Assembly: GCA_963718855.1 (NCBI GenBank)
Contig: CAVRAA010000002.1
Span: 50,225 to 114,224, forward strand
Direction: 5' to 3'
Length of the DNA stretch: 64,000 nucleotides
From: an uncultured Nitrospiraceae bacterium
Lineage (GTDB): Bacteria; Nitrospirota; Thermodesulfovibrionia; Thermodesulfovibrionales; SM23-35
Shown here: in pieces, positions 36,371 to 64,000 of the stretch
Layout of the letters: each line of letters opens with the position of its first letter
How positions within the stretch are numbered: the stretch's first letter is position 1
Made by a program: the position numbers and the translations under genes
Notes under the pieces: generated by a model
Database searches by the model: none
Seen by the model: only the letters and a program-made list of their open reading frames with translations
What the model was told of the DNA's origin: nothing

Positions 36371-36687
36371 GAGAAGAATGCGGTTACGGTTCAGGAGGGA
36401 TTGTCCTTTCTTTTTTACTCGGCGGCATCGTCGGTGCGGGTTTTGCCCTGCTCCTCGCTCCCCAGTCAGGCCGTGAGACGAGGCAGAAGATACGGGAGCT
36501 TACCGAAGATGTTAAGGGAAAGACGATGGATTACGTGGGAGAAGTGAAGGAAAAAGTAACCGGCGGCATTGATAAAGGTAAGGAATTTTACGAAGACAAG
36601 AAAACCATGGTAACCTCTGCTATCGAGGCGGGCAAAGAGGCCTACGAACGGGAAAAAGAGAGGTTGTCCAAAGAACCGAATGCATGA
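36367..36687 (+). CDS. YtxH domain protein
   Basis: FLLGGIVGAGFALLLAPQSGRETRQKI. Confidence 0.88.
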   Translation: MREECGYGSGGIVLSFLLGGIVGAGFALLLAPQSGRETRQKIRELTEDVKGKTMDYVGEVKEKVTGGIDKGKEFYEDKKTMVTSAIEAGKEAYEREKERLSKEPNA

Positions 36688-37025
36688 AGTCTCTATCGCC
36701 CAGGGTTTACTTGAAATAGCTATCGATAATTGTAAAAAGCATGGGTATCAAAGCATTGATTCGATCAAAGCCAAAGTAGGGAAAGCTTCGGGTATTGTGC
36801 CCGATTCCCTCCTTTTCGCGTTTGAGGCATTAAAACAAGACACCATCGCCGGGAACGCTACCCTGATCGATAGAAGAAATTCCTGTCGGCGGTTTTTGCG
36901 ACAGCTGCAAAAAGCATTTCACAGTTGATGAGGCGTATGTTATAGCATGCCCCATCTGCGGAAGCTCATCTTTCAAGATAGAAACAGGACGTGAATTAAA
37001 TGTCGACGAGGTGGAGGTATCCTGA
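36680..37025 (+). CDS. hypA: hydrogenase nickel metallochaperone, frameshift near 36870
   Basis: MHEVSIA, VPDSLLFAF; CDSC and CPICGS, GRELNV in the shifted frame. Confidence 0.9.
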
Positions 37026-37681
37026 TGAAGGTCAAGGTTGTTACCAATATACTGGAAGCCAATGACAGGCTTGCCATTGAAAACAGGAAGATATTCGACC
37101 AGGCCGGTGTCTATGTGATGAACGTGATGAGCGGGCCGGGAGCGGGTAAAACGTCACTCCTCGAGAGTACGATCAAAGACCTTAAAGGGAAATTGAAGAT
37201 CGGAGTTATCGAAGGTGATATTGCCGGCACCGATGATGCCCAGAGGATAGAGGCCCTCGGCATCCCTGTTGTTCAGATAAATACCGGCGGCGGATGCCAT
37301 CTTGACGCGAACATGATTTATGAAGTGCTCGGCGAATTGCCGATCAAAGACCTCGACCTGCTTATCATCGAAAATGTCGGCAACCTTGTATGCCCTGCTG
37401 AATTCAAGCTGGGAGAGGACATGAAGATAACGCTCCTCAGCATCGCCGAAGGACATGATAAACCGCTTAAGTATCCCCTGATGTTTCAGGAATCGTCTGC
37501 CCTTGTGCTGAATAAAATAGACCTTCTTCCCTATACGAATACTGATATTGGCAAGATACGGAAAGACTCTTTGTCCCTGAACCCGAATCTGAAGATATTC
37601 GAAGTTTCGTGCAGGACAGGCGAGGGGATAAGCGAATGGACGAAGTGGCTGCAGGCGCTGGTAAAGTCAGAACAAAGATAG
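37025..37681 (+). CDS. hypB: hydrogenase nickel incorporation GTPase
   Basis: SGPGAGKT, EGD, CHLDA, ENVGNLVCPA, DKPLKYP, NKIDL. Confidence 0.96.
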   Translation: MKVKVVTNILEANDRLAIENRKIFDQAGVYVMNVMSGPGAGKTSLLESTIKDLKGKLKIGVIEGDIAGTDDAQRIEALGIPVVQINTGGGCHLDANMIYEVLGELPIKDLDLLIIENVGNLVCPAEFKLGEDMKITLLSIAEGHDKPLKYPLMFQESSALVLNKIDLLPYTNTDIGKIRKDSLSLNPNLKIFEVSCRTGEGISEWTKWLQALVKSEQR

Positions 37682-40084
37682 CAGTCAAAGGCATCGTCCA
37701 GGGTGTCGGCTTCAGGCCATTCGTTTATAAGTTAGCAAAATCGCTGCAGCTCTGCGGTTATGTCATCAATTCATCCAAAGGGGTGACGATCGAGATAGAA
37801 GGCGACGGCAGCGCTGAATTTATTGACAGATTGACCAAGGAAGCGCCTCCCCTGTCACAGATAATGAGTATCGACATCATTCCCTTGCCGTATCTCGGCT
37901 ACACGGATTTTCAGATTAAAGAGAGCAGGGATGAAGGCAGTTTTACCCTCGTTTCAGCAGATGTTTCGATCTGCAAGGACTGCTTCGGGGAAATGCTCGA
38001 CAACAACGACAGGAGATATCTCTATCCCTTTATCAACTGTACGAACTGCGGCCCCCGGTATACGATTACAAAATCCGTTCCCTATGACAGACCGAATACC
38101 ACAATGTCTGTCTTTCGACTCTGTCCCGATTGCAAAAAAGAATATCACGATCCTGCGGACAGGAGATTCCATGCCCAGCCGAATGCGTGCCCTGTATGCG
38201 GGCCGCAGGTTGAGTTAAAAGTTACAAGTGAAAAGTTAAAAGTTAATAAAAAAGCGGATCCGATTGCAGAAACAATCAGGCTTGTTAAAAGAGGGAAAGA
38301 TTGTTGCCATCAAGGGACTGGGCGGATTCCATATCGCGTGCGACGCTGCGAATGAGAAAGCGGTCAGGAGGTTGCGCTCCGAAAAAAGGAGGAGCAACAA
38401 GCCCTTTGCCCTTATGTCCCCGGACATTGAGACGATCAGGAAATTCTGCAGAGTGTCTGAGGAGGAAGAGGCTGTTCTCGTATCGAACAGGAGGCCGATT
38501 GTTCTGCTCGAAAAACAGCAAAACAACCTCCCCGATGCTGTCTCGCCGCATAATCCGTGCATCGGCTTTATGCTACCCTATACGCCGCTGCATTATCTGC
38601 TGTTTTATTATCCGATGATTGAAAAGAATCGCAGGCTGAAGCCTGCGGCTACATCTTCCGAGATAGAGGGTGAATTTCGACGCCCTTGTTATGACAAGCG
38701 GCAATATTGCAGAGGAACCCATTGTTATCGATAATGATGAGGCCGTGTCGAAGCTGTCGGATATTGCCGATGCGTTTCTTCTCCATAACAGGGATATTTT
38801 CATGCGGGTTGATGATTCTGTCGTGAGGGTGATGGGTAGAAAAGCAGAAACGGAGACACGGAGAGACGGCAGATAGGGAGCATACAATATCTACCGCGTC
38901 CCCGCGTCCCATCGCTTACTCTTCCATATCCTTTATTCGCCGTTCAAGGGGATATGTGCCTGATCCGATTCCGCTTCATGACGAAGGCCCTGAAGTGCTC
39001 GGGTGCGGCGCGGATATTAAGAATATATTCACCCTTACAAAAGGGAGTTTTGCGATCCCGAGCCAGCATATAGGGGACATGGAGAACTATGAGACACTGC
39101 GGTTTTTCGAAGAGAGTCTGAAAAACCTGAAAGACGTTTACCGGGTGAATCCCGTAGCGCTTGCTCACGACCTCCATCCGATGTATCTGTCGACACAGTG
39201 GGCTTTACGGCAGGAGAATATAAAAAAAGTCGGGATCCAGCATCACTATGCCCATGTCGGATCTGTCATGGCTGAAAAGGGACTGAAGGATAAGGTCATC
39301 GGCATTTCATTCGACGGAACCGGCTACGGCGCTGACGGGAATCTCTGGGGAGCAGAATTCCTGATCGCCGATATAAAGGGTTTCAGGCGGGCAGGCCATT
39401 TTTCCTACGTTCCGCTCCCCGGCGGAGAAGTTGCGGTCAAAGAGCCGTGGAGGACTGTTGTCAGTTATATCAGGAAGATTGCGGGAGATGAGACAATCCC
39501 TTATCTTGAATCAATCGGCTTTGTGAAAAAGTACGGCGCTGACAGAATCAACGATCTCCTCAGGGTTATCGACATACGCCAGTTTTCCCCCCTGGCATCG
39601 AGCGCCGGAAGACTCTTTGATGCGGTCTCTGCACTGATAGAAGTATGCGATACGAATACGTTTGAGGGCGAAGCTGCGATCGCACTCGAGGCAGTTGCCA
39701 TGCCCGGGATTACTGATGACTATCCGGTTGATATCAAATTCAAAGAAATAATGGAGATCGATTTTTCCCATACCATCCTGAGAATCCTCAGCGACAGGGA
39801 GAAAAAAGTGGAGAAAGGCGTTATCTCCGCGAAATTCCATAATACTGTTATTGCCGTCTATCCTTAGGGTTGCCGAGAAGCTTGCGGCGCTGCATCGGCT
39901 GAAGGATGCAGTTCTGTGCGGCGGCGTATTTCAAAATATGTATCTCCTGCAAAGGACGGTTGAAGGGCTTCAGTCAAAAGGCTTGACGGTTCATATCCAC
40001 GACAAAGTGCCGACGAACGACGCCGGCGTGTCCCTCGGTCAGGCCTATATTCTCAGGGAGAGGATTAAGGCGGGAATTGATTAA
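37636..40084 (+). CDS. hypF: carbamoyltransferase, several frameshifts and repeat insertions
   Basis: GIVQGVGFRPF, NCTNCGPRY, RRFHAQPNACPVCGP, KGLGGFH, MTSGN, RRSRGY, HDLHP, QHHYAH, DGTGYG, SSAGRLFD, GGVFQN, PTNDAG. Confidence 0.92.
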
Positions 40085-40315
40085 CAGCAAGGGGCCAAGG
40101 GGTCGAGGGTTCAAGAGACTGGCAGAAATGTTAAATACTATAATTATAGTATTCTAAGAGATGTGAGACGGAGAGAGTTTTGACGGATTTTTTTGCCGAT
40201 AGTCAAATACTTTGTAATAAAGAGGCAAAAGCCTCGCAGGGAGGAACGACCGAGAATAGCGAAAAATCTTTCCGGCGTTTTGAAAAAATTACAATATATA
40301 CTAAAGGAGCGGAAA

Positions 40316-41383
40316 ATGAAAAATATCGTTGAAAAAATAAAACAACTCATGGATTCCATCGGGAAGCCGGTAAAGCTCATGGAGGTGTGCGGAACGCACA
40401 CAGTGGCGATCTTCAGGCACGGCATCAGAGACGTTATTCCGAAAGAGATAAGCCTTCTGAGCGGTCCCGGATGCCCTGTATGCGTCACCCCGATTAGAGA
40501 CGTCGATGCAGCTATAGCCATTGCACGGCGTGACGGGTGTCTCCTTACGACGTTCGGCGATATGATGAGGGTGCCGGGGAGCAAACAGTCCCTCTTTCAT
40601 GCCCAGGCTGAAGGCGCTCATATCACTATCGTCTATTCTCCCATGGATGCCTTAAGAATCGCCCAGGAAAATAAAGATAAAAATGTAGTATTTTTCGCAA
40701 CAGGATTTGAAACGACGTCACCTGCCATTGCAGGGACCCTCTTCGAGGCAGAGAGAACAGGGACGGATAATTTTTTTATCTATTCCGCTCACAAAACAGT
40801 GCCTGCGGCCCTGAAGGTCCTCCTCGATTCCCCTGACCTGAAGATCGACGGGTTCATTCTCCCCGGGCATGTAACCACGATTATAGGGACCCAGCCCTAT
40901 GAGTTTATTGCTTCCGATTATAAAATCCCTGCGGTTGTAACGGGTTTTGAGGCGGACGATATTCTGCGGGCTATCATGATGATCCTTGACCAGATCGCAT
41001 CCGGCAGGGCTGAGGTCGAAATTCAGTACACCAGGGTCGTAAAAAAAGAAGGCAATCCCAAGGCGATGTCTTTGATCAACAAATATTTCGAACCCTGCGA
41101 TGCCAATTGGAGAGGGATTGGCGTGATCCCCGGAAGCGGACTGAAATTAAGAGAGAGCGCTCATCGTTGGGACGCCACACGCGTCTTCAATCTCGAAATC
41201 CCTGATTCGCAGGAGCCGAAAGGGTGCCTGTGCGGACTCGTGCTCAGGGGCGTAAAAATTCCCACGGATTGTCGTTTATTCGGAAAAGGTTGCACCCCCG
41301 AACATCCCATTGGCGCTTGCATGGTGAGCACTGAAGGAAGCTGCGCCGCATATTACAAGTATTCAGGGGTAATCAAGCACTAA
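40316..41383 (+). CDS. hypD: hydrogenase formation protein
   Basis: MEVCGTHT, GPGCPVCV, GFETT, PGHV, CMVSTEGSC. Confidence 0.96.
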   Translation: MKNIVEKIKQLMDSIGKPVKLMEVCGTHTVAIFRHGIRDVIPKEISLLSGPGCPVCVTPIRDVDAAIAIARRDGCLLTTFGDMMRVPGSKQSLFHAQAEGAHITIVYSPMDALRIAQENKDKNVVFFATGFETTSPAIAGTLFEAERTGTDNFFIYSAHKTVPAALKVLLDSPDLKIDGFILPGHVTTIIGTQPYEFIASDYKIPAVVTGFEADDILRAIMMILDQIASGRAEVEIQYTRVVKKEGNPKAMSLINKYFEPCDANWRGIGVIPGSGLKLRESAHRWDATRVFNLEIPDSQEPKGCLCGLVLRGVKIPTDCRLFGKGCTPEHPIGACMVSTEGSCAAYYKYSGVIKH

Positions 41384-41384: not shown

Positions 41385-42023
41385 GTGTTGTCTGCTGATT
41401 TATATGTTGAGAAGATAAACTTTCTCAGATATCTGAATCAGTCCGACTGCAGGGAATGCGGCTTCCCTTCGTGCAACGAATTTATCCTCGCGCTCCGGGC
41501 AGGAAGAGCGGAAACTCATGCCTGCTCTTTTCTCAGCCGGAATAAGGCGTATGCATTCGAGGCAATAGGGAAGATTCAGGAACTGTGGCCTGAAGTGCCT
41601 CTCCTCACACACCCGAGACCGGGCTTTACCGGCCTCATCGAACTCAACAATCCTGAACCATCCTCCCTGGTGCTCGTCACCGGGAATAACGAATACACCG
41701 GGGAAGTCATCATGACAGTCCTGGGGACGACCTTATGCCCGTTTTTTGTCATCTTTGCCGATACCGGCGGCAATACGGTTGATATGGCCATGATCTATCA
41801 GACTTTGACAGCGGAGATAATATGCGGCGCCCTCAATGAAACAGGCATCGGGGATAAAGTACAGGCGCAGGAACTTCTTATCCCAGGGCTCGCGGGGCCA
41901 CTGAAAGAAGACATCGAAAGACTGTCAGGGTGGAAGGTGAGGGTAGGGCCGGTATGCGCGGCTGAACTGCCGCTTTTCCTTTCCGAACTATGGATTCCGC
42001 CGGAAACGGTAAATGGGCAATGA
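41385..42023 (+). CDS. Fe-S protein: N-terminal 4Fe-4S domain + corrinoid Fe-S protein (AcsC/CdhE)-like C-terminal domain
   Basis: DCRECGFPSC...C; LVTGNN, DTGG, LLIPGLA, GWKVRVGP..AAELP. Confidence 0.7.
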   Translation: MLSADLYVEKINFLRYLNQSDCRECGFPSCNEFILALRAGRAETHACSFLSRNKAYAFEAIGKIQELWPEVPLLTHPRPGFTGLIELNNPEPSSLVLVTGNNEYTGEVIMTVLGTTLCPFFVIFADTGGNTVDMAMIYQTLTAEIICGALNETGIGDKVQAQELLIPGLAGPLKEDIERLSGWKVRVGPVCAAELPLFLSELWIPPETVNGQ

Positions 42024-42098: not shown

Positions 42099-42198
42099 GT
42101 AGCCGCAGGCTTTAGCCTGCGCAGATGCGCAAACTAAAGTTTGCAGCTACCATTATTTGCGTATCAAGGATCCACGCAGGCTAAAGCCTGCGGCTACC
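42099..42198. repeat. cluster of three GTAG-type REP hairpins
   Basis: GTAGCCGCAGGCTTTAGCCTGCG, CGCAAACTAAAGTTTGCAGCTAC, CGCAGGCTAAAGCCTGCGGCTAC. Confidence 0.8.
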
Positions 42199-42245
42199 AT
42201 TCTGGATGTGTTAGAATAAGTGAATTAATTCTGGAGGTTACCATA

Positions 42246-43244
42246 ATGGAGAGAATTCTTCTCGGTCACGGCAGCGGCGGGAGACTGATGTATCAGTTAA
42301 TCAGAGATCATTTTGTCCCGAAATTCGGGATGAGATCATTGAACGACTCCGCAGTGCTTACCGGTCTCAATAAAGGAAAAGTTGCGTTCACCACGGATTC
42401 ATATGTAGTCTCACCGATATTTTTCCCCGGGGGGGATATCGGCGAGCTTGCGGTATACGGTACCGTGAATGACCTCTCCATGGTCGGGGCGAAACCGTTA
42501 TATCTTACATCGGGGCTCATCATCGAAGAGGGCTTTCCCCTCGCTGACCTGAAGAAAATTCTTGCATCCATGTCCAACGCAGCGGAAAAAGCAGGGGTCA
42601 GGATCGTTGCCGGAGACACAAAGGTAGTCAACAAAGGTAAAGCCGATGGAATATTCATTAATACTGCAGGGATTGGAGTTGTTCCAACAGGGCTCGACAT
42701 ATCCCCGGTTAAGGTGAAGCCTGCTGATAAAGTCATACTCAGCGGCCCAATTGGCAACCATGGCATATCCGTTATCGGGGAGAGGAACGGTCTTACGTTC
42801 AATCCTCCAGTCCTCAGCGATACAGCGCCTCTCAACGGGCTTGTCAGCTCCATGCTTAAAAAAAGCAAAAAAATACATACCATGAGAGACCCTACCAGGG
42901 GCGGTCTTGCGACTACTCTCAAGGAAATTGCCACGGATTCCGGCTGCTGTATTGTTATCGACGAGGGTGCAATTCCCGTTCCTCCTGGCGTCAAGGGAGC
43001 GTGCGAGCTTCTCGGGCTCGATCCGCTCTATGTAGCCAATGAAGGGATCCTCATTGCGGTGGTCAGCCCTGAGGTTGCTGATCCTCTCGTTAAGGTTATG
43101 CGGGCGCATCCGAATGGAAAAGGGTCCCGCATCATTGGAGAAGTGAAGAAATCGCCTACCGGCATGGTCCTGTTAAAGACAGCCATCGGCGGCACGAGAA
43201 TCATAGAAATGCTTTCAGGCGATCAGCTGCCGAGAATATGTTAG
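42246..43244 (+). CDS. hypE: hydrogenase expression/formation protein
   Basis: LGHGSGG, TTDSYVV, GTVNDL, GDTKVV, RDPTRGG, ANEG, C-terminal LPRIC. Confidence 0.96.
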   Translation: MERILLGHGSGGRLMYQLIRDHFVPKFGMRSLNDSAVLTGLNKGKVAFTTDSYVVSPIFFPGGDIGELAVYGTVNDLSMVGAKPLYLTSGLIIEEGFPLADLKKILASMSNAAEKAGVRIVAGDTKVVNKGKADGIFINTAGIGVVPTGLDISPVKVKPADKVILSGPIGNHGISVIGERNGLTFNPPVLSDTAPLNGLVSSMLKKSKKIHTMRDPTRGGLATTLKEIATDSGCCIVIDEGAIPVPPGVKGACELLGLDPLYVANEGILIAVVSPEVADPLVKVMRAHPNGKGSRIIGEVKKSPTGMVLLKTAIGGTRIIEMLSGDQLPRIC

Positions 43245-43393: not shown

Positions 43394-44106
43394 ATGCTTC
43401 TTGGCGTAAATATTGATCATGTGGCCACGATACGGCAGGCGCGGTTGGGCGCAGATCCCGATCCTGTCATGGCCGCTACATTGGCGATACTCGGCGGAGC
43501 AGACGGGATCACCCTCCATTTGCGGGAGGACAGACGCCACATCCAGGACCGGGATCTCAGGCTTCTGAGAGAAATTGTCCCCTGTGAGCTTAACCTTGAA
43601 ATGGCTGCAACAAAGGAGATGATCGGCATTGCGCTGAAGACGAAGCCCGATCTTGTCACCCTTGTGCCTGAAAAAAGGCAGGAGCTTACGACAGAAGGCG
43701 GGCTTGATGTTGGTTCGCAGAAAAAAACAGTGAGAGAAGCGGTCAGAAAAATCCGTGACGCGGGAATTCCCGTGAGTCTTTTTATCAATCCCGACCGGGA
43801 TGATATAGAGATATCGAAGCAGACAGGCGCGGATATGGTGGAGATACATACCGGCATGTACGCGAATGCAAAAAAGAAAAGACAGGAAGAAGAACTCGTC
43901 CGCGTTATGAAGGCGGCAGAGCATGCGCTGAAGGTCGGGATTATGGTAAATGCAGGGCACGGGCTTAATTACTCAACGTATCAGGATGCGCTTCCATTCA
44001 GGGGCTTCGGGGGCTCTATATCGGACACAGTATTATTTCACGGGCAGTACTCACTGGGATGGAAAAGGCGGTAAGAGAGATGAAAGAATTGATAAAGAAT
44101 GCTTGA
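43394..44106 (+). CDS. pdxJ: pyridoxine 5'-phosphate synthase, frameshift near 43975
   Basis: [39 protein letters not shown]; IGHSIISRA in shifted frame. Confidence 0.93.
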
Positions 44107-44118
44107 AGGAAGATTAAA

Positions 44119-44579
44119 ATGGAAAAAAATATTTTGATTCTATGCTGCGGCTATCCCTGGGCAACTGATATGGCATTTGGCTATCATGTATTGAAAGCTT
44201 TGGAGAAGATGCACTTCCCGGAAATGTAGAAATCATGGAGGTCGGGGATTCAGCCTGTATGATTCCGGCATTCGTTGAAGGTAAGGACAAACTTGGTCGT
44301 TGTTGATATTTTCAGGGTCGATTGCTAAGCCTAGTGACCGATAGTCCGTCTGAAGCAAGCGGAGGTTCCCGGTTACTGTTAACAGCAAAACAGATATTGA
44401 TAAATTTCATCTTATGGAAATGCTTGAACAAATCAAAATCAGCGGCAAATGCCCTGAGGCTATTTTTATCGGTGTTGTGCCAAAGGACTCAGAGGACAAG
44501 CGGAGAAAAATTAACGCCTGTAATAAAAAAACAAATCCCCAAGGTTATAGATTTAATCATGCAAGAGATAAACCCATAG
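44119..44579 (+). CDS. divergent hydrogenase maturation protease-like protein, multiple frameshifts
   Basis: ILILCCGYPWATDMAFG..VL..L, NVEIMEVG, KLVVVD, H....ML, IFIGVVP, LTPVIKKQIPKVIDLI; HybD/HyaD-like order of motifs. Confidence 0.6.
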
Positions 44580-44616: not shown

Positions 44617-45782
44617 TTATTGAAGAGTCGGACCGGTTAGGGCATGATGGAATATAAATACTTTAATAAATTCCTTGCGGGTTACTTCTGATTTGACAAA
44701 CGTTGCTTGTTGTTGGATAACTGCCCGGGTTATGATCTCTCCATGGCAGGAAAGGTAACACTCCCCTGCCCGATTCCCCAAATCATTGAATTCAGGGCAC
44801 CGCTGCTTGAAGGACTGACTGGAGATACTGTTCAGATCGATAAGATGAGAATATTGCATACTGCCATGGACATTATGGCCGTACGACAGGAAGTTCCGGC
44901 AACGGAAACATGCAGATTATGAAACTGAAAACTCTCATTGCTCAGGATACTCGTTCTCGTGTGACAATTGTAACAGAGTTCATACTGAAAACCTTTCTGA
45001 ACCATCTACTCCGAAAAATTCTTCTTTAAAATATACTTATAAGTTGGAGCCATGTGGGCCCTCGGGCCCGAAAGGATCATCATTCCCGTGGCAATCAGTG
45101 CATTTGATAATGCTTGATACCGTTAATGGATACGATAAGACTTGGCACATTGACATTTCTGCCCGAAGCCAAGGATTGGATGATATGAAGGGCGTGAAAC
45201 ATCAAACATATTCCCCTTGTTTGATTGATTCCCAGGGAGATTTCCTATTTGCATGACACTTGAAACAAAGTTCATATTCGTCAATGATCTGTCTCTACCT
45301 GTTCCCCCTGAGCATTGTCTCCTTTGATGCCTAATGTTTTGTTGATTTTTAATACATAGTGATGATGGTGCAATCCATATAAGTTACTTCCATGGGCATT
45401 GATTCGTCTACCTGAGGATAGGTTTTTCGAACCCTCACTGCACATATGCGTATTATTTTTGATAGGAGTCAATATGGTTTTTCAAATTCTACTCTGCAGG
45501 TCTATCTAATTCACATCCTTTCCCAAATCGCCAGTCTGTTTTACTTTTGTATTTGCATACTATTACCATGACACCTGAAGCAAAAAGAATTTCTGTCCTG
45601 GGCAGCATAGGAGTATTAGGTTTCCCATGGCCTTTATGGCAACTTCCACAGCCTTTTGGAATTTTAGTTCCATCTCTATGTGCCCTTTTAGATGCCTGTG
45701 AGAAGACCAATGGCGGTATCAAGACAATACTTAATGATATCATCATTAGCGCTATGCATATACATGTAATTTTCTTGTTCAA
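44617..45782 (-). CDS. multiheme c-type cytochrome (~8 hemes), multiple frameshifts
   Basis: signal peptide; clean CGSCH, CFRCH, CFKCH, CTDCH, CYNCH; two indel-damaged motifs; terminal CYLSCH. Confidence 0.75.
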
Positions 45783-45810
45783 AGTAGTAGAGTTACCCCA
45801 TTTTAAAGGT

Positions 45811-46541
45811 TCAGTATAATCGTGTCTCCATATAGACAGGAAAATTATCATCATGGCACACTAAGCATACATCATCATAGGTTTCTTTTCGCCAAAAGGG
45901 TGGCGGAGGAACACCATTGACCGTTATTCCTCTTCCGCCGTGAGGATCATGGCAGGAGGTACACTGGACACCGTATCCGCCCTGCGTAGGATAAAGTTTC
46001 ACATAGGGGTCATCATCGGCCAAATAAGCTTCATGGGAAAATCAAGTGAGGGATCATTTCTCATGCTCGACCAAATTAGCATCAAAGATAATCGATATAG
46101 GGTGGCCACCCCCCAGATCTGTTCCCAAATATCCGTGATCGTCTACAGATAATATGTCAGGAAATGTTTCAATAGTTGCTGTTACTAATGCCCCGAGAGC
46201 GATCGTCCCATCGTGACAGCCCAGACAAAGTTTTGAATAACCATCAATGGGCGGAGCACTGCCCGGTGCATAGGGCTGCAGCGTATCGCTTTCATATGCA
46301 GTGTATGTGACTCCATTAGAGACTTGATGATTCCATAAAGGATAATCAGGCGATGCATTATGAGGGGTATGACAGAAAATACAAATCTGGCTTTCCTCGG
46401 ATAATACACCAAGTCATAGCGAAACGGGTTAGAAGCAGATAAATTATGCCTTGTGCTTGCAACTCCACCGTAAGCATTAAAACATAAAATAAAAAAACTT
46501 AAACAATATAATCCGATAATTAGTGGTTTTAAAATTTTCAA
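45811..46541 (-). CDS. OmcE-like tetraheme cytochrome c (candidate nanowire subunit), frameshifted
   Basis: rebuilt across frames: signal, STRHNLS, QICIFCHTPHNA, PLWN, SKLCLGCHDG, LGTDLGGGHPI, VQCTSCHDPH, PFWR, VCLVCH. Confidence 0.8.
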
Positions 46542-46905: not shown

Positions 46906-47964
46906 TTATGGCCTCTTAAGATATTGAAATACCTGAATCCTATTATTATAAGAATCAGCAATATAAATCCGGTCGTTACTGTCAATAAATATTCCCGCGG
47001 GGATAAAGAAGTCACCATTTCCGCTTCCGGAACTGCCGAACCATAGCAGTAATTTGCCATTCTTGTCGAATATCTGAACATTATCAAAATGTGCGTCAGT
47101 GATATATATATTGCCTTCTGAATCAACTGCCACGCCTTTGGGTTTAGAAAAATTTCCTGATCCGTCTCCAAGTTTACCGAACGTAGATATAAATTCGCCA
47201 TCTCTGTTGAAAATCTGGACTCTGAAATTCATTGAATCAAGAATATAAAGAAGATTGTCCTTTCCGATAAAGATATTTGTTGGGTAATTAAATTCTCCCT
47301 TAGCTGAACCATGTGTGCCGAATCTGAACAGGTACAGACCTGTAGATTGGGAAAATACAAACACCTGATGCCGATGAGTGTCAACTACATACATACGGTC
47401 TTCATCAATTGCTATGCCAGTTGGCCTTATAAATCCTTCAGGTGGAACCATGCTCCGCAGATATTTTCCCTCCTTATCAAATACAAAAACATTTTTCAGC
47501 ACAGAGTCCGACAGGAATATCTGACCATTTGCATGTATGGTAATTCCTATAGGAGACATGAGAGCCTCTCCGTTAATCTCATATATCCGGGAATATTTTT
47601 TCCTTTTTACATCAAAGATATGAATGCAAGCAAGTCCCGGATCCGTCACATAAATAATTTCAGAATCAGCGACTATACCATAAGGCCTCAACATTTGTTC
47701 GCCATGTTCTTCTCTGCCCAACACTGTATCTACTGCTTTCTTAAACCAGGATTTTTGAATGCCTAAATCATCTGGGCCCCTGATGGTTTTGATTAGTTGA
47801 ATTCTCGGATCATGTGGAGGCCACGATAGAATACCGTCGCCCGTCAGTGCATCGGAATCTTTGTTAAGGTAAGTATTTTTTACGCAGGCCGCAGACGGAA
47901 ATATAAGGCATAAAAAAATTATAAGTGGAAAAAAGTTACAAATCCTAATCGCGCGAGAAATCAT
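46906..47964 (-). CDS. NHL-repeat six-bladed beta-propeller lipoprotein
   Basis: SAAC lipobox, WPP, repeated F..P.GIA.D...IY..D..N.R.Q.F units. Confidence 0.9.
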   Translation of the reverse strand: MISRAIRICNFFPLIIFLCLIFPSAACVKNTYLNKDSDALTGDGILSWPPHDPRIQLIKTIRGPDDLGIQKSWFKKAVDTVLGREEHGEQMLRPYGIVADSEIIYVTDPGLACIHIFDVKRKKYSRIYEINGEALMSPIGITIHANGQIFLSDSVLKNVFVFDKEGKYLRSMVPPEGFIRPTGIAIDEDRMYVVDTHRHQVFVFSQSTGLYLFRFGTHGSAKGEFNYPTNIFIGKDNLLYILDSMNFRVQIFNRDGEFISTFGKLGDGSGNFSKPKGVAVDSEGNIYITDAHFDNVQIFDKNGKLLLWFGSSGSGNGDFFIPAGIFIDSNDRIYIADSYNNRIQVFQYLKRP

Positions 47965-49795: not shown

Positions 49796-49949
49796 GAAGA
49801 CGAGATCCTCCAAAACTTTTCACAATGCCCACATTTTATTATAATATATGCACTATTAAAATATTTTAAATTACGCAATGAATGAAAATGCTCTTTTCCA
49901 CGAGGCGAAAAAATGAAGGATATATGAATAGTTTCTTTGGGTACTTACA

Positions 49950-53214: not shown

Positions 53215-54062
53215 TATTTACCAACCTCCTTTCCTAAACTGTGTGCACTTAAGTGACACATATTACATTGCGGGAACTGTTTCAGCATGCCTGCGGGATG
53301 AGGCGCGCCGTGGCATGACTCACATGCGGGCACATATTTATGTTTTTCTTTGTGGCAGAAGACACATGCCAGAGCAGAGTGTTTTGTGTTCGATGACGTA
53401 AGACTGCCGGAGACGTCTGCATGACAGGCCGCGCATTGGCTGTTCGGCATATCAGGAGCGATAGAAATCGTAAGGGGCTGGTGGGCCGGATGGCAGACCA
53501 TGCAGTCCTTGTCCGTCTGCTCAGCAGAATGAGGCTGGTGGCACTTCATACACGGGGGAACATCCCTGTGTGCCTTGTGGCAAGTGGTACAGAACAGCTT
53601 CGAATGGAGCGTCGGGGTGTCCTTCAGTTCCTGTCCCTGCTTTGGATGGCAGGAAAGGCACGGGGCTGTGAGATTGACTGCCAGCTTCATATCGAGCGGC
53701 GCGTGCGGGTCGGTATGGCATGTGTTGCATCCGCCGATCTCGTAGTGCGGCTTGCCCGCGTGACACTCGCTGCAGAGCGGAATAATCTTGTCCTTGCTCA
53801 CCATCGGGGGATGTCCTTTATGGCAGCCCATGCAGGAAATGGCGGTCTTATGCTTGCTCCCCTTGCTCTCCACCGTGCCTGCCACCGCGGTATGACATTT
53901 GCCGCAGTCGCTGTTTGCAAGCTGTGCCTGGTCCGCAAAGCCCTCCTGCACGATGAAATGGTTCGGTAATAAGACAGATACGAAAAACCCTGTTACAGCG
54001 AGGAAAAGCAATGAACACATGATCTTCCCCTTTTTGTTCTTCTCCATGAGGCGCTTACTCAT
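53214..54062 (-). CDS. dodecaheme cytochrome c (paralog of the downstream gene)
   Basis: N-terminal hydrophobic segment; 12 CXXCH with the same spacing; TAATG coupling to the next gene. Confidence 0.92.
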   Translation of the reverse strand: MSKRLMEKNKKGKIMCSLLFLAVTGFFVSVLLPNHFIVQEGFADQAQLANSDCGKCHTAVAGTVESKGSKHKTAISCMGCHKGHPPMVSKDKIIPLCSECHAGKPHYEIGGCNTCHTDPHAPLDMKLAVNLTAPCLSCHPKQGQELKDTPTLHSKLFCTTCHKAHRDVPPCMKCHQPHSAEQTDKDCMVCHPAHQPLTISIAPDMPNSQCAACHADVSGSLTSSNTKHSALACVFCHKEKHKYVPACESCHGAPHPAGMLKQFPQCNMCHLSAHSLGKEVGK

Positions 54063-57217: not shown

Positions 57218-57227
57218 AACAGAGGAA

Positions 57228-58190
57228 ATGAATATGACTGACTCGACCCCTGAATTTTCGGTCGTCATCCCGATCTGCAACGAACAGGAGAACATCCCTG
57301 AACTCTGCACGAGGCTGACGGGCGTCATGGAGATCGCTCTGTGCAGTCGTGAATCTGCCCGGACGACCGATACGAAATCATCATCGTTGACGACGGCAGC
57401 AGGGACGCCTCATGGGAGCGTATAAGGGAATATCATGATCGTGACAGCAGGGTGAAGGGGATCAGCTTTTCGAGGAATTTCGGCCACCACATTGCAATCA
57501 CCGCCGGCATTGACAGTGCCAGGGGGAATACCGTCATTCTGATGGACGGTGACCTCCAGGACCCGCCTGAAGAGATCCCGGTGCTCTTTGAGAAATTCAG
57601 GGAAGGCTACGACATCGTCTACGGGATACGCCGGCACCGTGAAGACCCCTTGCTGAAAAAGATGTCCTCATCCGTGTTCTGGTGGATACTGAGAAAGTTC
57701 TCCGGAGTCGATATCCCGCAGGGACAGACGATGCTGCGGATTCTGAGCAGAAGGCTCATCGAGAGCATGAAAGGAATGCGGGAGCACGCGCGGTTTATCC
57801 ACGGCATGATGGCATGGGCCGGGTTCAGGACCGCGACAGTAACAGTCAGGCACGAGCCGAGGACAAAGGGAAAAAGTAAATACAATGTCCCCAAAATGTT
57901 CAGGCTCGCGTTTCATGCAGTAACCTCTTTTTCGATCAGTGCCGCTCAGACTCGCCACGTATCTCGGCTTCCTGAGCGCTTTGGCCAGTTTTCTTATCGG
58001 GATGTATTTCGTCTACAAGCGGTTTGTTTACGGGATCCCGGTGCTCGGGTACGCCTCGATCATCGTCTCGATCTTTTTCGTCGGCGGCATACAGCTGCTC
58101 GTCCTCGGGATATTCGGGGAGTATCTGGGAAGGACCTATCAGGAAGTCCAGAGAAGGCCGCTCTATATTATTCAGGAATCATTGTTGTAG
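57228..58190 (+). CDS. GT2 polyprenol-phosphate glycosyltransferase (GtrB/ArnC-like), frameshifted
   Basis: SVVIPICNE, IIVDDGSRD, SRNFGH, MDGDLQDPP, GKSKY, two TMs, GEYLGR...RPLYII. Confidence 0.88.
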
Positions 58191-58196
58191 GGTCGT

Positions 58197-58632
58197 TTTC
58201 CCCCACTTTAGAAAAGGGGGGTTAGGGGGGATTTGATTCCTCATGCTGCAATATGATAAGAGGCTTAAACAGTTTTCAAGGGCGCTTAGAACAAATATGA
58301 CGGATTCTGAAAAGCTGTTATGGGCAAAGATCAGAAGCAGGCAACTGAAAGGGCATCAATTTTACAGACAAAAGGTCATAGGGAGCTATATCGTCGATTT
58401 TTATTGCCCAAAAGCAAGATTAGTCATTGAAGTTGATGGAGGTCAGCATTATAGTGCTGAAGGTTTGAATAAAGATAAGATCAGAGATGATTTTCTGGAA
58501 GAATCCGGATTGAAGGTTATTAGATTTTCAGATAGTGAAGTCTGTAGGAATCTGCGAGGAGTTATCGAAAAAATATGGAGTTATTTATAATTTATAAAAT
58601 CTCCCCTTACCCCTCTTTGCCAAAGAGGGGAA
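58197..58632 (+). mobile_element. DUF559 endonuclease cassette B between ~38-bp inverted termini
   Basis: 58197-58236 is an imperfect inverted repeat of 58595-58632, bracketing only the DUF559 ORF. Confidence 0.6.
58243..58590 (+). CDS. DUF559 / Vsr-like endonuclease
   Basis: LRTNMTDSEKLLW, FYRQ, YIVDFYC, IEVDGGQH, GLKVIRF. Confidence 0.9.
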   Translation: MLQYDKRLKQFSRALRTNMTDSEKLLWAKIRSRQLKGHQFYRQKVIGSYIVDFYCPKARLVIEVDGGQHYSAEGLNKDKIRDDFLEESGLKVIRFSDSEVCRNLRGVIEKIWSYL

Positions 58633-58659
58633 TGAGAAAAATGAGGGATTTATAGCCTT

Positions 58660-59376
58660 ATGATCAAAGAATTGCCCTGGGACAGCGCTTTCTTCCGGAG
58701 AAAAATAGGGGCCTTAAAGGCGCCATCCGATGATCTTTCTGCTGTAAAAGACGCTCTCAAAAAAGCAAAAAAAGACGGCTTCGCATACCTGACGTGCAGG
58801 CTCCCGGCGCAGGATGCCGTATTGATAAGGCTTCTGGAATCTGTCGGTTTTTATCTGACCGATATCGGCGTCACACTGGAGACAGCCACACGGAGCTATT
58901 TTCAGAAAGGAAAGCAATCGCGTCCAACAAAACAGAATGCGATCAAAGCAGCGACCCTTGAGGACATACCGGCGCTGCAAAAATATATCACATCCCTTTT
59001 CCGCGAAAGCCGCTTTTATAATGACCCGTTTTTTCCCAGGGAGGACGCCGACAGACTGTATCGGGCATGGATCGAAAATTCCGTGAGAGGCGAGGCCGCA
59101 GACATCGTTTTCCATATTCCCGGAACAGGCTTTATCAGCTGCAGGAAAGCGGGAAAGCATTCAGGGCAGATTGTGCTTATCGGGATAAAGAAAAGATTCA
59201 GGGGAAAGGGGTACGGCACAGCGCTCATCGCAGAAGCGATGGCATGGTTCAGAAAGGAACGTATCAGCACCGTTACCGTGAGAACGCAGTTGAAAAATAC
59301 AAAGGCCCTGAATTTCTACCTTCATTCAGGCTTTACCGTAAAGGAATACGATATTATTTTTGGAAGGATATTGTGA
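58660..59376 (+). CDS. GNAT sugar N-acetyltransferase (WecD/RffC-like)
   Basis: LPWDSAFF, SRFYNDP, RLYRAWIEN, RGKGYG, VRTQLKN..AL.FY..SGF. Confidence 0.85.
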   Translation: MIKELPWDSAFFRRKIGALKAPSDDLSAVKDALKKAKKDGFAYLTCRLPAQDAVLIRLLESVGFYLTDIGVTLETATRSYFQKGKQSRPTKQNAIKAATLEDIPALQKYITSLFRESRFYNDPFFPREDADRLYRAWIENSVRGEAADIVFHIPGTGFISCRKAGKHSGQIVLIGIKKRFRGKGYGTALIAEAMAWFRKERISTVTVRTQLKNTKALNFYLHSGFTVKEYDIIFGRIL

Positions 59377-59489: not shown

Positions 59490-61404
59490 TCAGTATCCCT
59501 GTCTCCGTAAAAACTCCAGTCGCTGCTTCACTTTTTCATTTGCCGGATCAATCATCTGCGCCTTTGAGAATGCCCTTTTTGCTTCCTGGTAGTTCTGCTT
59601 TGCGAGGAAGGCGTCGCCTATGGTGATCGAATAGTTCACGTTCCAGCCGTAGTCCTGCGCCTTGAGTGCCGCCTCAACCGCCACTTCATTCCACAGCCAC
59701 TCCTTCGGCATAGAGAACCGGTCTATGAAGGGTTTATTTGCAGGGCTCTCCTGCAGGAAGATGAGAGAGATGTTGTCCATATAGATGAGATGCCAGGCAG
59801 GGTCATTGAGCAGCGCGGGAATCAGCGGTACGAGCCTGCCGCGTAAAGTTGTCCACCGAATACGTGATGATAAAATCCACGTTATATGCCTTAAGGATCG
59901 CCTTCCATTCAGGTAATTGTTCTACGGGCTGCCGGGACGCCCCCAGCACCCTCACTTCCTGGAAGAAGACCTCGCCTATTAATCCCCTGCCGTCGATGAA
60001 GACCTTGTAGTCGGGATAGAGCTCCCACATGAGATATCCGCCCCAGACATACGGATTAAACATATTCCCGGGTATCCTGTTCTCTTTCAGAAACCGCGCA
60101 GCCCCTTCAGGGTATTTATTCATCCGGATGCCGCTCTTAAAGAGATCTGCATTGTTGATGACGATGATGAGGGCTATCGAAAGGATAATCGCAGACGGCA
60201 TCTCGATTTTTTTCGCCATCGACTGTAAGTAGCTCCGGTGGCTTCAGCTTCCTGAGGATTTCCGCTCCGTATCGGGCGATCATGAGTGCGGCGACCGGGC
60301 AGAAGAACGGGATAAAACGGGAAGACGAAAGGCTCATGACGGCAAGAACGGTCACGAGTACCCCATCAGTGAGGTCGCGTCTTTGTATGTCGATTACGAA
60401 GAGCAGGACCAAAAGGGTCAGGAGGATAAAATAGATGATGAATTGCGGTTCATAAAAACCGGACCGGACAAGGGTCACCGGGGATACCGATTCGATGATC
60501 ATGCTCTTGTAACGGCCGGTCTCGAATTCGAGGAGAAAGGGGAAAACCTTATAGCTGTTCGGATTCATAAAAGACGAGAGGACTGCGATAATACCCGCTA
60601 TGTTCAGCATCTTCAGGGAGCGGGAAGGGAGGATGCTCCCGAATCGTTTCATGAAATATTTCATATTTTCCGCAATAAGGTAACAGGCGAGAATCAGTAT
60701 CCCCAGGATAAAACCGCCATGAAGGTTCGCCCACAGGAGCATGATGAAGGGGAGGGGGAGAGGATAGAAGGTTGCAGGCCAATGACGAACGGCAATGACA
60801 GGCTGTTGTGTCTCACTCGAATCCTGGAATCCTTGATCCTTGAATCCTGTTGTGTTGCACTTGAATCCTCGAATCCTTGGATCCTATGGATCCTGTCGAT
60901 GTTGCACCCTTTGCCTTTCTAAACCCTTCCAGCAGAAAGATCAGAAGAAAAGCGAACAGAAACGAAAAAAGCTGTGGTCTTTCCCCTGTAAAGGTGCGGA
61001 ATATCATCACTACCGGGACAAGGAAAATGACGGAGGAGTAAATCCCGAACCCTTCTCTCCGTATGCCTCTGAATAGCAGGAATATGAGGAGCGTAAGCAG
61101 CGATGCCCTCAGGAAGATGATCCCCTCAAGGCCGAAAAGGTCGTATATCCGGTAGAAGATGACCTGAGCAAGCCAGTATTGTTTGAGGATGAACCCGATG
61201 CGCTTTTGATTCAGGGTTGAGAGGGTCTTTCTGCAGCGACGTATAGGCAAACGGGTCTGTCACGGGCAGTGATCCGGACTGATAAATATATTCGCCGGTC
61301 TTCAGATGCCACCAGAAATCAGGGTCCTTTATCTCGACGGAAAAAAGGCCGAAGACGAGGGTGAAGAGGAGGGCGAGGAGGATGAATTTGGAGATTCTTA
61401 ACAT
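59490..61404 (-). CDS. polytopic membrane protein, putative GT-C glycosyltransferase with C-terminal TPR, frameshifted
   Basis: DPDFWWHLKTGEYI after TM1, ERPQ, LWANLHGGF, NPN, RFIPFF, YP, N.Y.WGGYL, FIDGR; TPR tail. Confidence 0.7.
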
Positions 61405-61406
61405 TA

Positions 61407-61559
61407 GGATTCAAGGGTTCGAGGATTCAAGGGTTCGAGGAGTCAAGAGTATGAATCACTTGGCCTCTTTGCGTCAGTTTATTTTTCACTTGAATCCTCG
61501 ACTATCCTTGACTCCTGTTTTTTCACTTGAATCCTCGAATCCTTGGCCCCTGTGAATCC
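61407..61559. repeat. inverted arrays of GGATTCAA/GGGTTCGA octamers
   Basis: ggattcaagggttcgaggattcaagggttcga ... cttgaatcctcgaatccttg. Confidence 0.7.
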
Positions 61560-62025
61560 TATGTTTTTTCTATTTCTTTCATCACCAGATTGATCAGTAC
61601 AGGAATATTTTTTCTATCAGCGGTGAGAGTTCCATGCTGGCATCGAGGCTCTCCGGTTCGATGCCGAGGAATACGATCTCATCGGGTTTGGTCCCAGAAA
61701 ATTCGACGATGGCAATGACGTCCGAGAAGTCGATCCCATGGGCTGAACGCAGCGTCCCTTTTTTTGCTGCGAGATCTTTGTCGGTGAAGCGGAACAGTGT
61801 TCCCGGCGGCGCTCCCGCTTTTACTGCGTCGACCACAATAACTTTTTCTCTGCCCTCGATGAGAATAGAGAGATTGAGCCCTCCAACGCCTCCGTCCAAG
61901 ACTTCCACATCAGGCGGCAATGCATCTCCATGCATTTTTTCCGCAACGCGAACGCCGATGCCTTCGTCTGTCAGAAGGACATTGCCGATGCCGAGGATGA
62001 GTATTGTTTTATCTCGTGGTTCCAT
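61559..62025 (-). CDS. hydrogenase maturation protease (HybD/HyaD family), frameshift at C-terminus
   Basis: ILGIGNVLLTDEGIG, VLDGG, VVDA, SAH, LGIEP. Confidence 0.92.
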
Positions 62026-62312: not shown

Positions 62313-62344
62313 AAAAAAAAGGGAGGCGCTTTCGCGCCTCCCTT
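62313..62344 (-). terminator. rho-independent terminator after hydrogenase large subunit
   Basis: GGGAGGCGC-GAAA-GCGCCTCCC-U8 on the minus strand. Confidence 0.9.
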
Positions 62345-62365
62345 AAAGAGCAGCTCTGTATCGGA

Positions 62366-64000
62366 CTATTCTTTTACTTCGATGTTCGTTGGCCTTCCGT
62401 CAGGTCCGATAGCAAACTTCAGCGTCTCTTTCCCTTCGGGATTGACAACGTGGACTGCGCAAGCGATACAGCAATCGAACGGATGAACGAGCCTGAGGAT
62501 GTTCACGATCTGGCTCGGTTGCGTCCGTGCCGATGGTTGAGTCTATCAAGGGCCTGTTCAACAGGACCTGCTCGATGCCGTTGCATCCTGTCGGCGAGAA
62601 GTTCCATGTGGACGGAACGACGCACTGGTATTTCGCGACCTTGCGGCCTTCGATCTTTATCCAGTGGCCCAACGCGCCTCTCGGGCTTCGGTAAGACCAT
62701 AGCCTGTGCTGATCTGCTTCGGTATCTTCTTGTAGGTGTAACGGGCATCCGCAGCAAGCTGGTCAACCCAGCCGGTCACTGCCTGTGAGTACCTGCCATA
62801 AGGTCAGCAATGTACTTGGCCTCCAGTGCCCTTGCAGCGTGTCTTCCGAGCGCGCTGTAGAGAGCTGCTGCAGGTCTGGGTGACTAGCGCCCAAGCGTGC
62901 TGTCTAACAAGAGCTGTTACGCTGTAGTAGCGAGAGCTGCGCCGCCGAGGCCACTGACCTAAGCTGTCGCCGTCAGCTATGATGTCGTTAGCGGTAACCT
63001 GGTTCGCTGCGCTACAGGTAGGTTACTACCATACGCGCCAACGGTCCAACCTCGCATACTATCGGTGTCTGTTCCGTTCATATACCTCGGGGCCTTGAGC
63101 CAGCTGTAGCCGCCTGATGCTCATATTCGGAGTGGTCTTTCCGTCAAACGGATGCAGACCTGCTGCATCGAGAATTCCGTAGTTGTAATAGGAACTGCCG
63201 ACATACTCCCTGATCTTGGCCTGGTCGAAAGTGCTCGGTGTAAGAGTACGGTTGACACAGTCCTCTCTTGATGGCGAGTTTCCCGTTGCATTGACCGGAT
63301 AATCACCATAGGAGAGGAGATTTCCACAGCCGACGCCCTGGCTCCAGAATGCACGAGTATGCGGATGATTCGCAACGGTCACAACATCCGGAATGTACTT
63401 GGTGTTGATGAATGTCCTGACTTCGTATCAGGAGCGATTTGAACTTGCTTACCGTGTCTGGTGGCATTGAAAGGACCGAACTGATCGTAATCGGTCGTGA
63501 CCGGTGTCCATCGGATAGGTCGAGGAGAACAGTGTTGTCACACCGCCCGGAACCATTGCGTTCTGGATCGGCTGCCTGCCGCTGAAGAGCGCTCCTGCGG
63601 TATGCATCTTCCTTCTCATGTGCAAGGCCTGGACATAGTGGACGAACGAGTGTTCGAACCGAGTGCGCCGAGCTTCCGTCTATCATGTCGGATGCCGTAT
63701 AGGACGGCAGCCACGGGGCCATGCCCGGGAAGCTGGACGTGTTGATGAAGTCCAGTGCGGACAGGTGATAGAGATGGGTGATGTGCGACATGACGAGTGT
63801 CGCAGCCCTGAATGATGTTCTGGATTATCCTGCCGTTAGTCGGGATTGATGCGTCGAGTATGCCGTATGCATATTACCGGCTGCAGTCTGATGTTCCCGG
63901 ATCAACGTTAATGCCTAATGCTGTTTCTAAGCTTCTAACTGAAGCTAACCCATGTGCAGTGGGTCAGACTGCTCATATACGCTGGGCAATGACAGGTGCG
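62366..64000 (-). CDS. [NiFe(Se)]-hydrogenase large subunit, group 1a-like (5' end outside window; many indels; two in-frame TGA in L1 motif)
   Basis: QRI*AV*PTAH, IPTNGRIIQN, SHITHLYHLSALDF, EVGPLAR, RGALGHWIKI, YQCVVPSTWNFSP, HPFDCCIACAVH plus cleavable tail. Confidence 0.88.

Follow-up and report, generated by a model that had tools for sequence, protein, structure and literature searches.

A conserved gene array places an OmcE-type nanowire cluster beside a group-1 hydrogenase with a doubly recoded nickel motif in part of a Thermodesulfovibrionales family

To our knowledge, work on cytochrome nanowires has been confined almost entirely to Geobacter-type bacteria, where they are treated as outlets for respiratory electrons, and the OmaB-OmbB-OmcB system of Geobacter is a porin-cytochrome conduit. 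The closest described relative of the locus considered here is the gene cluster of the OmcE filament, which, in the available part of a 2026 account in mBio (PMC13712944), consists of two multihaem cytochromes, two beta-propeller lipoproteins, OmcE and a large barrel, is commonly followed by glycosyltransferase and sugar-modification genes, has homologues in Nitrospirota among other phyla, and in Desulfuromonadia sits between purine and haem-maturation genes and ffh. Further, the available part of PMC5815863 describes, for the sulfate reducer Desulfovibrio ferrophilus IS5, outer-membrane cytochrome clusters with NHL beta-propeller proteins and proposes electron uptake from solids, with no mention there of a hydrogenase; the likeness to our cluster is one of description. 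The present analysis concerns a window of 64,000 nucleotides from an uncultured sediment-dwelling Nitrospiraceae bacterium (positions 50,225 to 114,224 of contig C2 in the source genome G000, an assembly of 2.72 Mb in 14 contigs bearing C labels), in which an OmcE-type cluster lies between hydrogenase maturation genes and a periplasmic-type hydrogenase. All positions are window coordinates unless a contig label (e.g., C6:) is given; G labels denote family genomes and L labels related loci. With a probability of roughly 0.6, we read the locus as a conserved array of three modules (maturation, OmcE cluster and group-1 hydrogenase) that would be wired from the periplasm to the filament, the numerous frame breaks of the window copy being mostly consensus errors.

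Comparison with related genomes carries this reading. The hydrogenase operon, the dodecahaem cytochromes, the porin/OmcE cluster and the hyp genes are colinear on one contig in seven genomes (G000, G004, G009, G032, G034, G038 and G039), which represent six genera of one Thermodesulfovibrionales family with protein identities down to about 50-60%. The shared order is hyp / pdxJ / hycI / OmcE cluster / dodecahaems / (glycosylation) / hycI / hydL / hydS / orf90 / cyt253 / LuxR, where hydL and hydS are the hydrogenase subunits, orf90 is a 90-aa open reading frame (ORF), cyt253 an OmcE-like tetrahaem cytochrome and LuxR a LuxR-type regulator, the last three lying upstream in the hydrogenase operon of the relatives. 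This order is colinear in its entirety, from the DUF948, YtxH and hypA genes through LuxR, in the extended loci of G004, G009, G038 and G039, while the contigs of G032 and G034 run from the OmcE cluster through two dodecahaems, HycI, hydL, hydS, orf90 and the tetrahaem to LuxR. The window's own glycosylation genes recur in G038 and G039. In G009, the hydrogenase operon directly abuts the dodecahaem genes on the same strand, and the 13 genes from cyt253 to OmcE share one strand, separated by no more than about 450 nt. Among 57 family genomes, an OmcE homologue is present in 26 and this hydrogenase type, called at E<=1e-40, in 19; in the seven genomes with both on one contig, the two are 8-28 kb apart in every case, and the remaining genomes with both carry them on different, mostly short contigs that allow no judgement of linkage.

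The earlier note, made from the sequence alone, had proposed a single locus that wires periplasmic H2 cycling to an extracellular filament, with synteny in relatives as the check. This comparison favors linkage, and no genome that allowed a judgement showed the hydrogenase and cytochrome genes to be separated. The support is for a conserved linkage and does not extend to an obligatory unit, given that 11 of the 26 OmcE-bearing genomes, some of them incomplete, are without this hydrogenase type at the above threshold. No report of a hydrogenase-OmcE linkage was found in the literature searched, with most subscription journals and supplements falling outside its coverage.

Apart from these 11 genomes, several observations weigh against a wired array. 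Locus L017 passes from the hyp genes and pdxJ directly to the dodecahaems without an OmcE core, and G001 has hyp genes without OmcE or this hydrogenase. The housekeeping gene pdxJ is embedded in the array, which hence is not purely functional, and gene order alone is not proof of electron flow. Accordingly, these could be neighbours without wiring, i.e., independent redox modules that have stayed together by descent, each at the service of a sulfate reducer's common pool of periplasmic cytochromes. That the modules occur apart, that the seven colinear genomes are kin whose shared order may reflect ancestry, and that no hydrogenase is mentioned in the available part of the OmcE paper (PMC13712944) all fit this alternative. 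It sits less well with an order kept over six genera at such low identities, with the direct same-strand abutment in G009, with the OmcE-like cytochrome at the start of the relatives' hydrogenase operon, and with the operons examined, in which no cytochrome b anchor that would route electrons to quinone was found. We consider this alternative fairly unlikely and continue with the array of three wired modules as the preferred reading.

The centre of the array (44617-54062, minus strand) encodes an octahaem cytochrome, an OmcE homologue, two NHL-repeat propellers flanking a barrel, an MtrA-like cytochrome and two dodecahaems:

44617..45854, minus strand: multihaem cytochrome cytXb; intact orthologues have 7 CxxCH and 1 CxxxCH; 15-17 frame breaks
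45811..46541, minus strand: homologue of the OmcE-type tetrahaem nanowire subunit; 2-3 frame breaks
46906..47964, minus strand: NHL-repeat beta-propeller 1 (NHL1), intact; PF01436, E 1e-29; 0 breaks
47966..49813, minus strand: 615-aa outer-membrane beta-barrel, intact, predicted by AlphaFold2 and Foldseek
49950..50918, minus strand: NHL-repeat beta-propeller 2 (NHL2); PF01436, E 6e-29; 71% identity; two compensating breaks near 50395 and 50247
51060..52031, minus strand: MtrA-like multihaem cytochrome cytY; three frame breaks (51845, 51514 and 51285); G034 orthologue with 11 CxxCH
52316..53224, minus strand: dodecahaem cytochrome with 12 CxxCH, intact; cytochrome c7/c3 Pfam families; 73% identity to the L017 orthologue
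53214..54062, minus strand: dodecahaem cytochrome with 12 CxxCH, intact; Pfam and motif count

Judged by homology, this block fits the published description of the OmcE cluster gene for gene, and the nanowire part of the locus is as such already known, including in Nitrospirota. Intact orthologues of the OmcE homologue align over their full length with the filament subunit 7tfs_A (E 1.2e-24 and 7.2e-23), with all four CxxCH motifs in register, and match the filament 9yuq as well (chain 9yuq_N, full length, E 7e-22). Read through its breaks, the window copy retains four CxxCH motifs along with the RHNLS and GHPIS histidines. The extracellular filament of the earlier proposal thereby gains a likely subunit at 45811-46541. 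Like the Geobacter/Desulfuromonas clusters (7tfs, 9yuq), the locus combines a tetrahaem OmcE having four CxxCH and conserved histidines with two further multihaem cytochromes, two propellers, one large barrel and a trailing glycosylation block, the latter comparable in its GT2 glycosyltransferase, sugar-modifying enzymes and GT-C-like/TPR protein. In contrast to those clusters, it is placed between maturation genes and a periplasmic hydrogenase operon, has two additional dodecahaems, and in relatives is accompanied by a second OmcE-like cytochrome leading the hydrogenase operon. Solved structures show the filament in 7tfs and 9yuq; for this lineage, a filament is predicted from the genes.

The remaining parts of the block bear on a putative conduit across the outer membrane. 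In cytXb, most haem motifs are readable after frame correction, with two interrupted at breaks. The G034 orthologue of cytY matches 6r2q_A, which we take to be MtrA, at E 2.6e-16 (residues 41-239 against 66-286). Solved relatives of cytXb and of the dodecahaem at 53214-54062 were limited to weak or short matches. In NHL1 itself and in the orthologues of NHL2, a Cys follows the signal sequence, and by eye this suggests lipidation. The barrel gene is two genes from the OmcE homologue, with NHL1 between them. Its AlphaFold2 model (42-sequence alignment) has a signal helix and 28 strands at a mean predicted local distance difference test (pLDDT) value of 86.9; a Foldseek search with this model returned large outer-membrane barrels only, including TonB-dependent receptors and ushers, with the MtrB chain 6r2q_B at rank 5, the top TM-score of 0.40 and 10% identity. 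No Pfam family was found on the 615-aa protein, and its 43 homologues are all labelled "hypothetical", two of them with PF13505. The pairing of a periplasmic MtrA-like multihaem cytochrome with a large barrel encoded beside it is reminiscent of the MtrCAB/Pcc conduits (6r2q). These differ in that the barrel here is predicted to be 28-stranded with only generic similarity to MtrB, and in that an MtrC/OmcB-type surface lipoprotein cytochrome was not found in the locus, where no ORF reached the MtrC/MtrF Pfam cut-off and matches were weak and sub-threshold; instead, the outer component is the OmcE-type subunit. As a separate observation, the G+C content of the cluster core (44001-50000) is 0.40-0.42, against about 0.48-0.52 on either side; because the cluster occupies the same place in relatives, a recent insertion of this core is not indicated.

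At its right end, the array carries the hydrogenase and its protease:

61594..62025, minus strand: right HycI endopeptidase, intact; PF01750, E 2e-25; 75% identity, 0 breaks
62372..64000, continuing to about 64160, minus strand: group-1 [NiFe] hydrogenase large subunit (hydL); PF00374 in pieces; 15-18 breaks
63966..63977, minus strand: N-terminal nickel motif R-I-TGA-A-V-TGA-P of hydL, with TGA at 63975-63977 and 63966-63968

After frame correction, hydL has 389 of 572 residues identical to the G034 orthologue and 385 of 570 to that of G038, and its nearest solved structures are the periplasmic [NiFeSe] hydrogenases of Desulfovibrio and Desulfomicrobium (5jsu_B, E 1e-78). The enzyme resembles those of D. 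vulgaris and Desulfomicrobium baculatum (5jsu, 1cc1) in being matched best by their large subunits, in its HycI-type endopeptidase, in the lack of any cytochrome b gene in the operons examined and, as far as the G034 orthologue shows, in a small subunit with a twin-arginine (Tat) signal, but it is about 80-100 residues longer (593 aa vs. about 500). A second difference concerns recoding. Classical [NiFeSe] enzymes have selenocysteine (Sec) in their C-terminal motif, whereas here TGA occupies both cysteine codons of the N-terminal RxCGxC motif (hence UxxU), readable as RI-U-AV-U-PTAH in the window copy. The C-terminal motif keeps Cys codons in the window, G032, G034 and G038 (FDCCIACAVH, including DCCIACAVH, in the window copy), and the Sec of the classical C-terminal DPUxxC motif was not found in any of these four. 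The UxxU form is present at 11 of 12 orthologous loci (the window and 10 others, of which six come from different families within the order), the remaining locus having CxxU. The TGA pair is followed by a predicted hairpin in which 6 of 18 pairs are kept through double changes across five orthologues.

The genome encodes the means to read such codons, namely tRNA-Sec (C9:641434-641531), SelA and SelB. Additionally, a 96-nt tRNA at C5:346517-346612 has GCA as its anticodon and combines an acceptor stem of 8 bp with a long variable arm; its T-arm is identical to that of the tRNA-Sec, and it sits about 100 nt upstream of a hypC homologue (C5:346716-346907). From these features it looks like the SelC*/tRNA-ReC type, which the available part of a 2026 survey (PMC13582414) reports as enriched in UxxU genomes. 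Given this tRNA, the two TGA codons of hydL might be read as cysteine rather than selenocysteine; they would encode selenocysteine, or possibly cysteine through the SelC*-like tRNA. The same survey, in the part available, reports UxxU in silico only for group 4 hydrogenases, which are membrane-bound and energy-converting, whereas for groups 1 and 3 it places Sec at the C-terminal site, N-terminal CxxU being a rare exception; the present enzyme is by comparison of the Tat-exported group-1 type. No report of a group-1 UxxU hydrogenase was found in the literature searched, within the same coverage as above.

Upstream of hydL, where the earlier note had suggested looking for a small subunit and a membrane partner, the former was found and the latter was not. 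The G000 assembly includes no more of the small subunit than its C-terminal half, which lies beyond the window end and aligns to residues of about 186-410, contig C2 stopping 847 bases after that end; the G034 orthologue starts MLRITRRDFLK, a Tat signal. A membrane cytochrome b partner was not found in the hydrogenase operons examined, so electrons would presumably pass to periplasmic c-type cytochromes. The cyt253 protein at the head of the relatives' operon is itself an OmcE homologue (7tfs, E 1e-17). Counting against the reading of an intact array in this organism, the small-subunit N-terminus, orf90, cyt253 and the operon's regulator were not found in the G000 assembly; contig C12 has a LuxR homologue (52% identity) and, at its start, a TPR-GT41 fragment. 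Three other [NiFe] large-subunit genes were seen in the genome: those at C10:69936-71335 and C11:49-1443 have broken frames and sit no more than about 3 kb from a contig end, and that at C6:6651-8051, accompanied by its small subunit and HycI, is intact and belongs to a type that most sampled family genomes share.

The left-hand module was mapped, like the rest of the locus, by Pfam searches covering 38 ORFs between 35972 and 63791 and by comparing the genes with intact orthologues, with frame breaks located by frameshift-aware alignment of orthologous proteins to the window DNA. Preceded at left by DUF948 and YtxH genes, also on the plus strand, it comprises eight genes between 36680 and 44579:

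36680..37019, plus strand: hypA, nickel metallochaperone; PF01155 on 36680-36928; 80% identity to the L017 orthologue; one +1 break near 36866
37025..37681, plus strand: hypB, GTPase, intact; PF02492; orthologue 83% identical, 0 breaks
37669..40084, plus strand: hypF, carbamoyltransferase, in five pieces; breaks near 38281, 38672, 38892 and 39859
40193..41383, plus strand: hypD, intact; PF01924, E 8e-154; orthologue 85% identical, 0 breaks
41385..42023, plus strand: CdhD/Fe-S-like protein, intact; PF03599 and PF04060; between hypD and hypE
42141..43244, plus strand: hypE, intact; AIRS and AIRS_C; 81% identity, 0 breaks
43394..44115, plus strand: pdxJ, housekeeping; PF03740 profile positions 2-198 of 234; 80% identity; one -1 break near 43974
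44125..44579, plus strand: left HycI-like maturation protease, in fragments; 4 breaks and 1 stop; 65% identity once frame-corrected

The L022 orthologue of hypF is 78% identical over 778 codons with 4 breaks; the Acylphosphatase, zf-HYPF, Sua5 and HypF_C domains are distributed among three ORFs, of which 39782-40084 is the C-terminal piece. A hypC gene between hypF and hypD was considered and rejected, this stretch being the HypF C-terminus. None was found in the window locus, and hypC copies sit elsewhere in the genome (C6:309586 and C5:346716), which completes the hypA-F set. The nearest named relatives of HypD, at 84-85% identity, are in metagenome bins labelled Thermodesulfovibrionales or Nitrospirota. 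The left protease remnant aligns to intact HycI-like genes of 150-155 aa in L019, L039 and L034. As a side observation, the 212-aa product of 41385-42023 combines a part like the CdhD C-terminus with a putative Fe-S motif; its gene recurs in 13 related loci and occupies the hypD-hypE interval in G004, G009, G038 and G039. Taken together, Pfam and orthologue comparison bear out the earlier assignment of hypABFDE and a protease to the left flank, the latter in fragments only, and of hydrogenase and protease to the right, as well as the predominance of the minus strand between 44617 and 64000 (14 of 17 genes). Gene content and strands had thus been called correctly, while the frame breaks in 12 genes had gone unnoticed.

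From these parts, a path for electrons can be proposed. The Hyp proteins and the two HycI-type endopeptidases would mature the hydrogenase, which, exported by Tat to the periplasm and without a quinone-linked anchor, would exchange electrons with soluble multihaem cytochromes, i.e., the two dodecahaems and, in relatives, the OmcE-like tetrahaem of the hydrogenase operon. Through the MtrA-like cytochrome, seated inside the barrel, these carriers would connect with an extracellular OmcE filament that the neighbouring glycosylation enzymes may decorate. Periplasmic oxidation or formation of H2 would thereby be coupled to extracellular acceptors or donors under a possibly shared regulation, and flow could run either way, as H2-driven reduction of external acceptors or as uptake of external electrons with formation of H2. 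A more specific version, in which the UxxU periplasmic hydrogenase is a dedicated partner of the OmcE filament, with the operon's OmcE paralogue passing electrons between enzyme and wire and the quinone pool bypassed, is offered as a tentative and somewhat doubtful proposal.

The frame breaks bear on whether this array is intact in the organism. At least 53 breaks fall in 12 genes of the locus, none of the 12 being an open frame: 38 in 6,253 aligned codons of 21 genes, and 15 in hydL (18 against the closer G038 orthologue), for a density of about 2.6 per kb (53 in about 20.5 kb). The genes hypB, hypD, hypE, the CdhD-like gene, NHL1, the barrel, both dodecahaems and the right HycI are intact, and only about three breaks are present in the window's first 36 kb. 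As a control, 104 G000 genes with orthologues in 300 kb of G001 were compared, revealing 36 breaks in 41,434 codons (0.29 per kb) that affect 19 of the 104 genes, including rpoB (3 breaks), rpoA, adk, murF and sat. Genes as essential as these cannot have become pseudogenes, so indel errors must run through the whole assembly. One extra base accounts for 26 of the 36 control breaks, and the same type is dominant in hypA, hypF, cytY and the membrane protein of the glycosylation region.

Contigs from three other sediment metagenomes, 90-99.9% alike, have one base fewer at the cytY breaks (51286, 51515 and 51840), except that the contig of metagenome X4 retains the window base at 51840, and one base fewer at 50244, coinciding with an NHL2 break. 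Even near-identical metagenome pieces still differ from the window by gaps. In the frame-corrected hydL, long stretches are identical to G038 and both nickel motifs are kept, with no stop beyond the two TGA save two stop codons in a poorly aligned stretch. Further, a patch of 6 breaks in 2 kb sits 169 kb from any contig end, and open-frame coverage within 20 kb of contig ends is 0.69 (45 windows) vs. 0.77 elsewhere (219 windows). Hence, from sequence comparison, most of the breaks are probably consensus errors of a noisy long-read assembly and not decay, and the organism probably has an intact locus.

Against this stand a break density about 9 times the genome-wide rate and very uneven, with 15-18 breaks in hydL and 15-17 in cytXb as opposed to 0 in the adjacent HycI, NHL1 and barrel genes, a greater share of missing-base events in cytXb than in the genome-wide signature, and the repeat copy of about 80 nt in the membrane-protein gene, which an indel error could not create. 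These features would be expected if the locus were decaying, with the hydrogenase and some maturation and nanowire genes as genuine pseudogenes and with H2 use and extracellular electron transfer lost. The concentration of breaks in hydL, cytXb and the left HycI, the similarly broken large subunits on C10 and C11 next to an intact one on C6, and the stretch 44567-45233, which no metagenome contig at least 90% alike covers, agree with it. Breaks of the same kind, however, affect essential genes throughout the genome; the catalytic or haem motifs of hydL and cytXb survive once the frame is corrected, with identities close to those of the intact genes nearby; the G038 comparison shows no further in-frame stops outside the poorly aligned stretch; the cytY and NHL2 breaks are single-base differences from contigs with 95-99.9% identity elsewhere; and the broken C10 and C11 copies lie near contig ends, where open-frame coverage is lower. 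Wholesale decay is thus very unlikely, and real decay of some genes only slightly less so. The context of indels relative to the metagenome contigs is mixed (G5, T4 and C3 runs along with non-repeat sites) and does not decide between error and mutation; just four Illumina reads (X21) matched, all on a repeat. The idea that the broken hydrogenases of C2, C10 and C11 are duplicates that confused the assembler was rejected, as they share about 72-74% DNA identity over about 100 nt only. In a separate observation, the G039 hydL beside its OmcE cluster (L124, G039:C22:76908-78740) has 12 in-frame stops, and a second copy on another contig is nearly clean, so that the situation of the window recurs in a different genome bin.

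Between the dodecahaems and the right HycI lie the glycosylation genes:

54303-55331, minus strand: sugar-nucleotide epimerase/dehydratase, intact; PF16363 and PF01370, full length
55487-56680, minus strand: DegT-type aminotransferase, intact; PF01041, full length
57452..59376, plus strand: GT2 glycosyltransferase, DUF559 protein and GNAT acetyltransferase; by Pfam, with the same genes in G038 and G039
59490..61410, minus strand: polytopic membrane protein with C-terminal TPR, possibly GT-C-like; four frame breaks; repeat copy of about 80 nt at 60813-60894

Orthologues of the epimerase and DegT genes occupy the same place in G038 and G039 at 77-83% identity. The GT2 match covers only profile positions 58-153 of 168, the N-terminus being lost to another frame. 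For the membrane protein, the intact L022 orthologue falls, by its language-model features, closest to a cluster named "RgtA/B/C/D-like glycosyltransferase" (score 0.98), a lead only towards a GT-C-like identity; Pfam found nothing beyond TPR on the window protein and no family on that orthologue. Summed contig depth over the DUF559/GNAT stretch (58243-59240) reaches 416 in the three sediment metagenomes, against about 5-60 nearby, and a 71%-identical copy of DUF559 is present on C9; this sequence seems common to many organisms. Additionally, a short interspersed repeat of about 60-130 nt is found at 40156-40290, 42099-42157, 54199-54272, 56770-56839, 59401-59492, 60813-60894 and 61486-61560, with more copies on C1, C3, C5, C6, C9, C12 and C13; the copies are mostly intergenic, with one inside the membrane-protein gene. 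Joints in metagenome contigs (e.g., 54268 to 58592) were considered as structural variants and rejected, their sides measuring only 19-34 nt and lying at repeat copies. Elsewhere in the window, two probable toxin-antitoxin pairs were observed, a Gp49/HigB-like gene with a helix-turn-helix gene at 2874-3555 and a MazF/PemK-like gene after an 80-aa ORF at 18724-19289.

What appears new here, within the literature searched, is the conserved hydrogenase linkage, the OmcE paralogue within the hydrogenase operon of relatives and the UxxU motif in a group-1 enzyme, the OmcE cluster itself being known. For genomes of this kind, the frame breaks warn that apparent pseudogene clusters in noisy long-read bins can be consensus errors, and pseudogene calls in G000 need read-level confirmation. 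The UxxU motif is extended from group 4 to a Tat-exported group-1 enzyme and is widespread in this order. As far as genes and their order can tell, the linkage suggests a connection of hydrogen metabolism with extracellular electron exchange. If the dedicated partnership is true, the cell could evolve H2 using electrons that the filament takes up (the source being minerals, metallic iron, electrodes or partner cells), or alternatively H2 could directly drive extracellular reduction without the quinone pool. Such coupling of a hydrogenase to a nanowire would be relevant to electron transfer between species, to the corrosion of iron and to cryptic sulfur cycling.

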